Source of the DNA: Eledone cirrhosa | Taxonomy: Eukaryota | Assembly (NCBI GenBank): GCA_964016885.1 | Contig: OZ024742.1 | Span: 280,364,001-280,428,000 of the forward strand | Direction: 5' to 3' | Length of the DNA stretch: 64,000 bases | Shown here: one piece after another, positions 38,199-39,719 of the stretch | Position numbering within the stretch: the stretch's first letter is position 1 | Layout: each line of letters starts with the position of its first letter | The notes under the pieces: model-generated | The model's database searches: none | Told to the model about the DNA's origin: nothing | Seen by the model: the letters and a program-made list of their open reading frames with translations, nothing else | Translations under genes and position numbers: made by a program

Positions 38199-38774
38199 TA
38201 TATATAGAAAGAGAGACATAGTCATAGTAGTAGTAGTAGAAGTAGTGTTGGGAGTTGTGTCTTTTCACTGAACAAAATTATTTTTTAGAGCTTTTCAACA
38301 CTTAATTTTAAATTTTAAATTTTTAATTCTTTTTAATTCTTTTTAATTGTATTATTCAACATTTGATAAGATGGTGTATATTTTATATATCCTATCTGTA
38401 TTATAGAACTTCTTTCTAAATGAATTGTCCCTCTCAGATTTTCATAATGTCACTTTGACGATTCAAAGGAGAAAAAAGAAAAACAGACCCTGAACTATAT
38501 TTTCCGCGCTATTTCCAATTCTACTTTCTCTATCCCGCCCCCTCTCTCTCTCTCTCTCTCTCTCTCTCTCTCTCTCTCTCTCTCTCTCTCTCTCTCTCTC
38601 TCACTCTCTCTCTCTTTATATATATATATATATATATATATATATATATATATATATATATATATATATATATATATATATATATATGTATATATATATA
38701 TATATATATATATATATATATATATATATATATATATATATCTACGTTGATTTATTTCTAGTAGGTTTGGCAAA

Positions 38775-38854
38775 GCTATCTGAAGAGCTATATCTTTCCA
38801 TTGGAAATTCTATGAATTTCCAATCATTTGATGAGCGAAACCGTCGGTCATCGC
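38775..38854 (+). ncRNA. Type I hammerhead motif (tandem copy 1)
   Basis: GCTAT CTGAAGA GCT [44 nt including an ATTGGAAATT/AATTTCCAAT hairpin] AGC GAAA CCG T CGG TC ATCGC; GUC triplet, cut after 38849; one mismatch in stem I. Confidence 0.8.
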
Positions 38855-39238
38855 ACTAGAAGAGGTAAATATTTAAATCGTATTTTAATTTATTTAAAAG
38901 ATTGTTTAATGTTTACTTGTTCCGCTCATATTTAGAGATCTGCTATCGCAAATTAGTACCATGGAACAACTACTATTATAGACACCATATATATTTCCGT
39001 GGGTACCTAGTAGATACTGGATTATCTATATCATTTATCTGAATTCTCCTTAATGTAGAGAAAAAAATGTTGTATCATGCTGTTATTTCTAGTAGCATGA
39101 AATATCAACTAGTCTATTTTTCCTGGTTTTTCTAACGGCCCATTTATGTGGTCGTCATTTTAACGGCTTGATTCATTCACCGGGCAGAAAGCGACACATC
39201 CACATCTACGTGGATTTATATTTAGTAGCTGTGGAAAA

Positions 39239-39318
39239 GCTATCTGAAGAGCTGTATCTTTCCATTGGATATTCTCTGAATTTCCAATCTTTTGATTAGC
39301 GAAACCGTCGGTCATTGC
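39239..39318 (+). ncRNA. Type I hammerhead motif (tandem copy 2)
   Basis: GCTAT CTGAAGA GCT...AGC GAAA CCG T CGG TC ATTGC; cut after 39313. Confidence 0.8.
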
Positions 39319-39719
39319 ACTAGATGAGATAAATATTTATAACGTATTTTAATTTATTTAAGAGATTGTTTAATGTTTACTTGTTCCGCTCATATATATA
39401 TATATATATATATATATATAAAGTTTAAGCAAAGAATCCGTTTGGATTCTTAGCTTAAACTTTAATCTGTTATTTTAATAAATATTTGCTCTACGGTTCT
39501 TATATATTTGATATATATTTATCCTTATTGAGCCCTCTTTGGATTTTAGTCTTCAAATTTATTATTATAATATATATATATATATATATATATATATATA
39601 TATATATATATATATATATATATATATATATATATATATATATATATATAATACATATATATATATATATACTCTTTTACCCTTTTACCTGTTTCAGCCA
39701 TCCGGCTGAGGCCATATTC

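Follow-up and report, generated by a model that had tools for sequence, protein, structure and literature searches.

Non-LTR retrozymes of animals have been described, with circular RNAs, from coral, mussel and axolotl (Cervera and de la Peña 2020, PMC7229834), and in a 2026 preprint the case is made that they derive from Penelope-like elements (PLEs) as non-autonomous forms; in the same preprint, one of nine Xenopus retrozyme dimers was cleaved in vitro (Li, Clavereau and Pollet, 10.64898/2026.07.22.740005). PLEs are built of pseudo-LTRs (pLTRs), an inverted truncated arm and a tail, and are biased towards microsatellites (PMC8557442). The reverse transcriptase (RT) of an anole PLE has two internal start sites, which mark out the genomic 'tail', and extends both DNA strands; in vitro its insertion proceeds without need of hammerhead cleavage, uncut RNA being the main template (PMC11167929). 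Proposals on how retrozymes are mobilised, and that PLE enzymes may copy circular RNA, date back to 2014. For cephalopods, a Penelope expansion is mentioned in octopus in an account whose relevant passages mention no ribozyme (PMC8967140), and no description of a cephalopod retrozyme was found in the literature searched; Repbase or Dfam may list such a unit as an unknown repeat.

The DNA analysed here (the window) is a stretch of 64,000 nucleotides from Eledone cirrhosa (GCA_964016885.1, contig OZ024742.1, positions 280,364,001 to 280,428,000). One of its elements resembles the animal non-LTR retrozymes as these are characterised in PMC7229834 and 10.64898/2026.07.22.740005: a non-coding tandem unit of a few hundred nucleotides, low in GC, with a type I hammerhead per unit, found as anything from monomers to long arrays in a genome where PLEs co-occur. 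Its unit measures 457-470 nt, compared with 170-400 nt in the expressed examples described and a range of 51-972 bp given by Li et al. It differs from them in a 50-nt branched stem II, in the predominance of single-hammerhead copies and in the lack of pLTR similarity to a coding PLE among 50 GIY-YIG loci. With the EN+ PLEs of the Neptune/Nematis type, as described by Craig et al. (2021, PMC8557442) and Frangieh et al. (2024, PMC11167929), it shares the position of the hammerhead, a short way before the 3' end, as well as a pair of fixed ends, partial tandems, an inverted 5'-truncated arm and microsatellite targeting; unlike them it has no ORF in the unit, and its ends lie about 108 nt apart, as opposed to the 30-40 nt tail described. 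The Chlamys PLEs such as MRC1 are likewise non-autonomous, with pseudo-LTRs and head-to-tail copies, although according to the same survey they generally have 3' sequence in common with an autonomous partner and mostly lack canonical hammerheads (PMC8557442). The retrozyme class and its link to PLEs are already published, and the family is useful as a test system: exact predicted start sites, a defined target, candidate enzymes with intact ORFs and many natural variants make the question of mobilisation directly testable.

Window copy

A preliminary description, made from the letters of the window, had noted in a candidate retrozyme two direct repeats, each holding a hammerhead core, predicted cuts 464 nt apart, no ORF and (TA)n on both sides. 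These observations were confirmed; the layout of the copy is as follows.

38617..38741, no strand: (TA)n target microsatellite, left flank (38617-38741)
38741..38930, + strand: 5'-truncated upstream copy, a pseudo-LTR (unit positions 275-464)
38775..38854, + strand: type I hammerhead 1, predicted cut after 38849
38775-38779/38850-38854, + strand: stem I of hammerhead 1, mismatch at 38852
38780-38786, + strand: core of hammerhead 1
38787-38836, + strand: stem II of hammerhead 1, inner hairpin 38800-38824
38837-38840, + strand: GAAA of hammerhead 1; palindromic stem III at 38840-38848
38850..39313, + strand: predicted cut-to-cut monomer of 464 nt
38859..38922, + strand: long AT-rich hairpin lying between the predicted cut and S1, with a second copy at about 39323-39386
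38931..39394, + strand: single complete 464-nt unit
39030..39045, + strand: S2, the other fixed 3' terminus in the family, at unit positions of about 100-115
39239..39318, + strand: second type I hammerhead, mismatched in stem I at 39316 and predicted to cut after 39313
39385..39394, + strand: S1, the family's principal fixed 3' end, with ...CCGCTCA followed by (AT)n
39392..39420, no strand: (AT)n target microsatellite, right flank

The two 190-nt direct repeats (38741-38930 and 39205-39394) follow each other with a period of 464 nt. Their cores, CTGAAGA, start at 38780 and 39244, and the 13-mer GAAACCGTCGGTC ends at 38849 and 39313, the two positions after which cuts are predicted; it occurs twice in the whole window, against 0 occurrences expected from shuffles. 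The monomer between the predicted cuts has 34% GC and is 61% paired when folded as a circle; it folds better than every one of 100 shuffles. Its longest ATG ORFs in circularised form are 22 aa (+) and 51 aa (-). No arm ends at S2 in this copy, and the AT-rich hairpin is a candidate recognition element for the RT. Because the repeats differ at 17 of 183 compared positions, among the highest values of 36 repeat pairs, and both stem I helices are mismatched, the copy is regarded as old and decayed.

A dispersed family in the genome

A DNA search of the 3.0-Gb genome returned 2,246 candidates, of which 39 were scored and gave 51 matches. Exact patterns, whose counts are lower bounds, found at least 193 motifs for the closest subfamilies and at least 1,600 exact-core motifs for the wider family, compared with 0 for the control. 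The copies fall into about nine subfamilies with units of 457-470 nt that are 64-85% identical to each other; 20 loci of divergent variants all contained parts of the same unit of about 460-470 nt at 64-92% identity. Copies arranged like this one lie on many chromosomes; the family sits mostly in TA microsatellites, and most copies carry a single hammerhead. Two tandem arrays have about 28 units each, one diverged (C3:162.363-162.376 Mb; L093, L094) and one nearly uniform, in which 11 of 18 of the 457-nt units are identical (G000:C1:156.4257-156.4385 Mb; L193, L221); the latter is the leading candidate for an active source.

The genome thus holds a dispersed, multi-copy mobile family. Its tandem units each bear a type I hammerhead, two or more of them following one another, and are non-coding, low in GC, free of LTR architecture and a few hundred nucleotides long; the repeat length varies between insertions. 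An RT plus GIY-YIG ORF between pLTRs, which marks an autonomous PLE, is absent from the unit. The window element is very probably a member of the animal non-LTR retrozymes, of a non-autonomous PLE type, and the retrozyme identity suggested in the preliminary description is supported by a dispersed non-coding family with a covarying hammerhead rather than a local duplication. A separate hammerhead family with a short stem II and a stem III of CCG-C-CGG, also ending in (TA)n, was seen at two loci (L219, L220); it has no similarity to the ~460-nt unit and no ORF nearby.

Ends of the insertions

The anatomy of the copies was established on 27 insertions of contig 1, sampled in the order of their positions with an intact core as the sole requirement. 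Of their 32 arms, 25 end at S1 (unit 460-464), five at S2 (100-115) and two elsewhere. The arm runs into TA in 24 of the 25 cases at S1 and in 27 of 30 for both sites together, and the 5' ends are scattered over the unit from u1 to u414. An inverted arm was present in 5/27 insertions, and two cut sites within one arm also in 5/27. Among 99 loci, 30 of the 38 two-armed insertions had one arm ending at S1 and the other at S2 (25 by the strict count, since five S2 calls rest on a BLAST break at u82 in divergent subfamilies); the remainder comprised one S1/S1 case and seven with an arm ending elsewhere. Copies of the sister family C end mostly at S2, in a score-ranked sample obtained with a query that covered S2. 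The two sites are about 108 nt apart, S1 lying 81 nt and S2 about 190 nt downstream of the cut.

PLE insertions are marked by fixed 3' ends accompanied by a further 'tail' end, by truncation at the 5' side, by inverted arms and by a microsatellite target, and all of these were found here. The permuted 1.x-mer copies anticipated genome-wide did not appear among the insertions sampled, and random permutation was rejected, with 30/32 arms ending at one of the two fixed sites. Since the 3' ends are fixed in this way, the 1.4-mer in the window corresponds to one unit plus a 5'-truncated pseudo-LTR of PLE type. No description of such fixed two-site ends in retrozymes was found in the literature searched.

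Hammerhead fold and predicted dimer formation

Each window hammerhead combines a stem I of GCTAT with AT(C/T)GC, the core, a GTC triplet and a stem III of ACCG-T-CGGT. In place of the short hairpin that is usual for stem II, there is a branch of 50 nt, closed by three pairs and enclosing a hairpin of 11 bp. The third pair of stem I is mismatched in both copies (C at 38852, T at 39316), at a position occupied by G in 59 of 65 other aligned segments. Differences between the copies do avoid the catalytic core and stem III, as described earlier, yet stems I (38852, 39316) and II are hit. The Rfam search gave no hammerhead match in the window repeats at either threshold, probably because stem II is 50 nt long. 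The minimum-energy fold of each copy differs from the hammerhead, and RNAalifold, unaided, recovered neither stem I nor stem II.

In an alignment of 38 sequences, hand-picked out of 122 distinct ones, two-sided changes affect 15 of 35 proposed pairs, which none of 500 shuffles reached. Pair 2 of stem I varies between A-U, G-C and U-A, and covariation extends to pairs 2 and 3 of stem II, the inner hairpin and an upstream hairpin; the first pair of stem II is unpaired in 21 of the 38 sequences. The invariance of the core and stem III in this alignment arises partly because many rows came from a pattern in which both were obligatory. When stem III was left unconstrained, it was intact in 75 of 100 among the matches listed (counted by eye), and no subfamily with an alternative stem III occurred among the 100 motifs listed. 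As the stems covary across about nine subfamilies, the hammerhead fold is evidently under selection.

Dimer-cleaving hammerheads of newts, axolotl and PLEs are reported with a short palindromic stem III (PMC4209133, PMC6765202, PMC7229834), as found here, although the present stem has 4 bp on each side of the central base instead of the usual 1-2 bp, so that a weak 3-bp hairpin is also possible in the monomer. Its self-duplex was calculated at -11.3 kcal/mol versus +0.4 for the lone hairpin, and the G and C flanking the central base can pair in the dimer alone; both features fit the dimer cleavage known for PLE and amphibian hammerheads. The palindrome thus supports, on modelled energies, the earlier proposal that stem III implies dimer folding as far as the family is concerned. 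For the decayed window copy, joint folding and release of the 464-nt product would be less likely than for a family-typical copy.

A pseudoknot between GGAAA and TTTCC, with at least 5 bp possible in 91 of 120 hammerheads, is a lead only, because it shows a single two-sided change, was mis-registered in alignment A2 (72.6% paired) and has a competing partner for TTTCC within TTTCCATTGGAAA. Stem II also contains a second palindrome centred on one base, TTTCCA-T-TGGAAA (38795-38807 and 39259-39271), which might pair from one dimer to another, or else act as a competitor of the inner hairpin.

Penelope-like elements as candidate partners

The genome has 10,596 GIY-YIG candidates, of which 50 loci were examined. 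RT plus GIY-YIG PLEs with a Cys linker are abundant in the genome; the loci examined include intact ORFs of this Neptune/Nematis type (L095 and L096, for instance), and the 3' ends of Neptune-type PLEs carry a hammerhead of their own followed by (TA)n. No DNA similarity between the unit and a coding PLE was found among the 50 (30 + 20) GIY-YIG loci, and no ORF-linked copy through the short-stem-II pattern, at 20 divergent-subfamily loci or at seven loci with a similar stem III; the unit stood apart from an RT ORF in every locus examined, as had been anticipated. It also contains no PLE coding remnant (best E 0.2). A match beside a Neptune ORF in L097 proved to be a separate insertion beyond that element's own end.

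At one locus (L162:1308-1622, G000:C3:176.58 Mb), a subfamily D hammerhead is fused to the 3' end of N1, a Neptune family, and the junction falls precisely on the predicted cut sites of both. No second such chimera was seen, and 5 nt of microhomology are present; a search for its reciprocal found none, and 18 further matches in the chimera search were plain Neptune copies.

The N1 hammerhead itself has a degenerate core, TTGAAAA for CTGANGA. In 17 N1 copies (L197-L213), the same 3-nt duplication was seen in stem III on different sequence backgrounds, possibly a recurrent slip of the RT near the cut site.

RNA template and proposed mode of mobilisation

With S1 located 81 nt past the cut, a linear cut monomer would give copies of 81 nt. 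Only 3 of 200 copies stopped at the cut site among the matches listed (of 500; counted by eye), which argues that the template was continuous across the site, either as a ligated circle or as uncut tandem RNA. A pile-up at the cut site, which looked suggestive in subfamily A (3/100), was dropped given 0/100 in B/C/D (among the matches listed, by eye). In family A (51 loci), the repeats of one insertion differ by 4.3% and those of separate loci by 6.8%, with 7 versus 0.7 private variants in common; the values for family C (28 loci) are 2.7% versus 4.6%, and 12 versus 0.4. Some of these pairs are not independent, six being from L125 and L003 and L004 having common flanks. The window's own repeats have no non-majority variant in common.

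Taken together, read-through and the private variants within insertions rather favour a circular template, although uniform arrays or gene conversion could produce the same similarity. The rolling reverse transcription of a circle, as first suggested, is thus preferred, with the reservation that linear read-through of a uniform tandem array leaves the same footprint. We consider it fairly probable that the window element is a decayed member of a family of dispersed, non-coding hammerhead repeats of about 460 nt, mobilised in trans by a Neptune-type PLE protein that copies a predicted circular monomer from fixed internal starts. Transcripts with at least two hammerheads would self-cleave as dimers through the palindromic stem III, and ligation would close the monomer into a circle whose lone hammerhead should be weak. 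The PLE protein would likely nick (TA)n DNA, its RT presumably starting at S1 or at S2, respectively 81 nt and about 190 nt past the cut, crossing the junction and stopping at a variable point; the window copy would represent 1.4 rounds. A fuller version of this scheme is offered tentatively and may well fail in some part: the PLE enzyme would rolling-copy the hammerhead-made RNA circle, starting at two internal sites of fixed position that each serve one of the cut DNA ends, for about nine subfamilies without sequence kinship to their carrier, with the 50-nt branched stem II docking on the GGAAA next to stem I and cleaved retrozyme and Neptune RNA ends being joined in trans at their cut sites.

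The same non-autonomous PLE family might instead be copied from uncut linear RNA running through tandem copies or arrays, the hammerhead trimming precursors or riding along and no circle being copied. Uncut RNA is the main in vitro substrate described for the anole PLE (PMC11167929), arrays of about 28 units do exist at two loci, one of them nearly uniform, and read-through at the cut site fits equally well. However, the covariation across the subfamilies indicates a fold under selection, the variants private to single insertions would need many different uniform source arrays, and the retrozymes of coral, mussel and axolotl are described as making abundant circles (PMC7229834), so that we regard the linear template as possible but doubtful. 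That the repeats are detached pseudo-LTRs of an unsampled coding PLE is very improbable and largely refuted: with 50 loci examined out of 10,596 candidates and 5'-truncated PLE ends being common, a parent could have been missed, yet upstream of copies longer than one unit the same 460-nt unit begins again in all subfamilies, the PLE protein matches near some loci belong to separate insertions, and the unit lacks a coding remnant. The lack of an Rfam match and the non-hammerhead minimum-energy fold would suit a single duplication at this locus in which a hammerhead-like motif arose by chance; this reading is refuted, and its chance is negligible, given similarly arranged copies on many chromosomes, covarying stems and 1,600 motifs against none in the control.

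Neighbouring elements in the window

The window contains further PLE-derived sequences and other elements:

29532-32631, - strand: frameshifted Neptune-type PLE of family N1 with a long 3' UTR, 85-90% protein identity to the intact ORF of L096
~29020-29535: fragment of a second PLE family
37273-37565: two-armed N1 terminal fragment, in which each arm stops at one or other of the two N1 ends, in (TA)n
11265-11348, 15316-15465 and 33952-34106: further N1 terminal fragments
11795-11817, 14810-14850, 21338-21375, 46564-46605 and 54832-54863, - strand: hammerhead-core candidates
14573-14595, 15868-15908 and 56567-56599, + strand: hammerhead-core candidates
40434-44037, - strand: LINE-type element with ORF pieces for an endonuclease (PF03372) and zf-RVT (PF13966), unrelated to the retrozyme

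Hammerhead-core matches number 12 in the window compared with 2.35 expected. Several of the further candidates form inverted pairs ending in (TA)n, and they are likely the ends of other PLEs or retrozymes.
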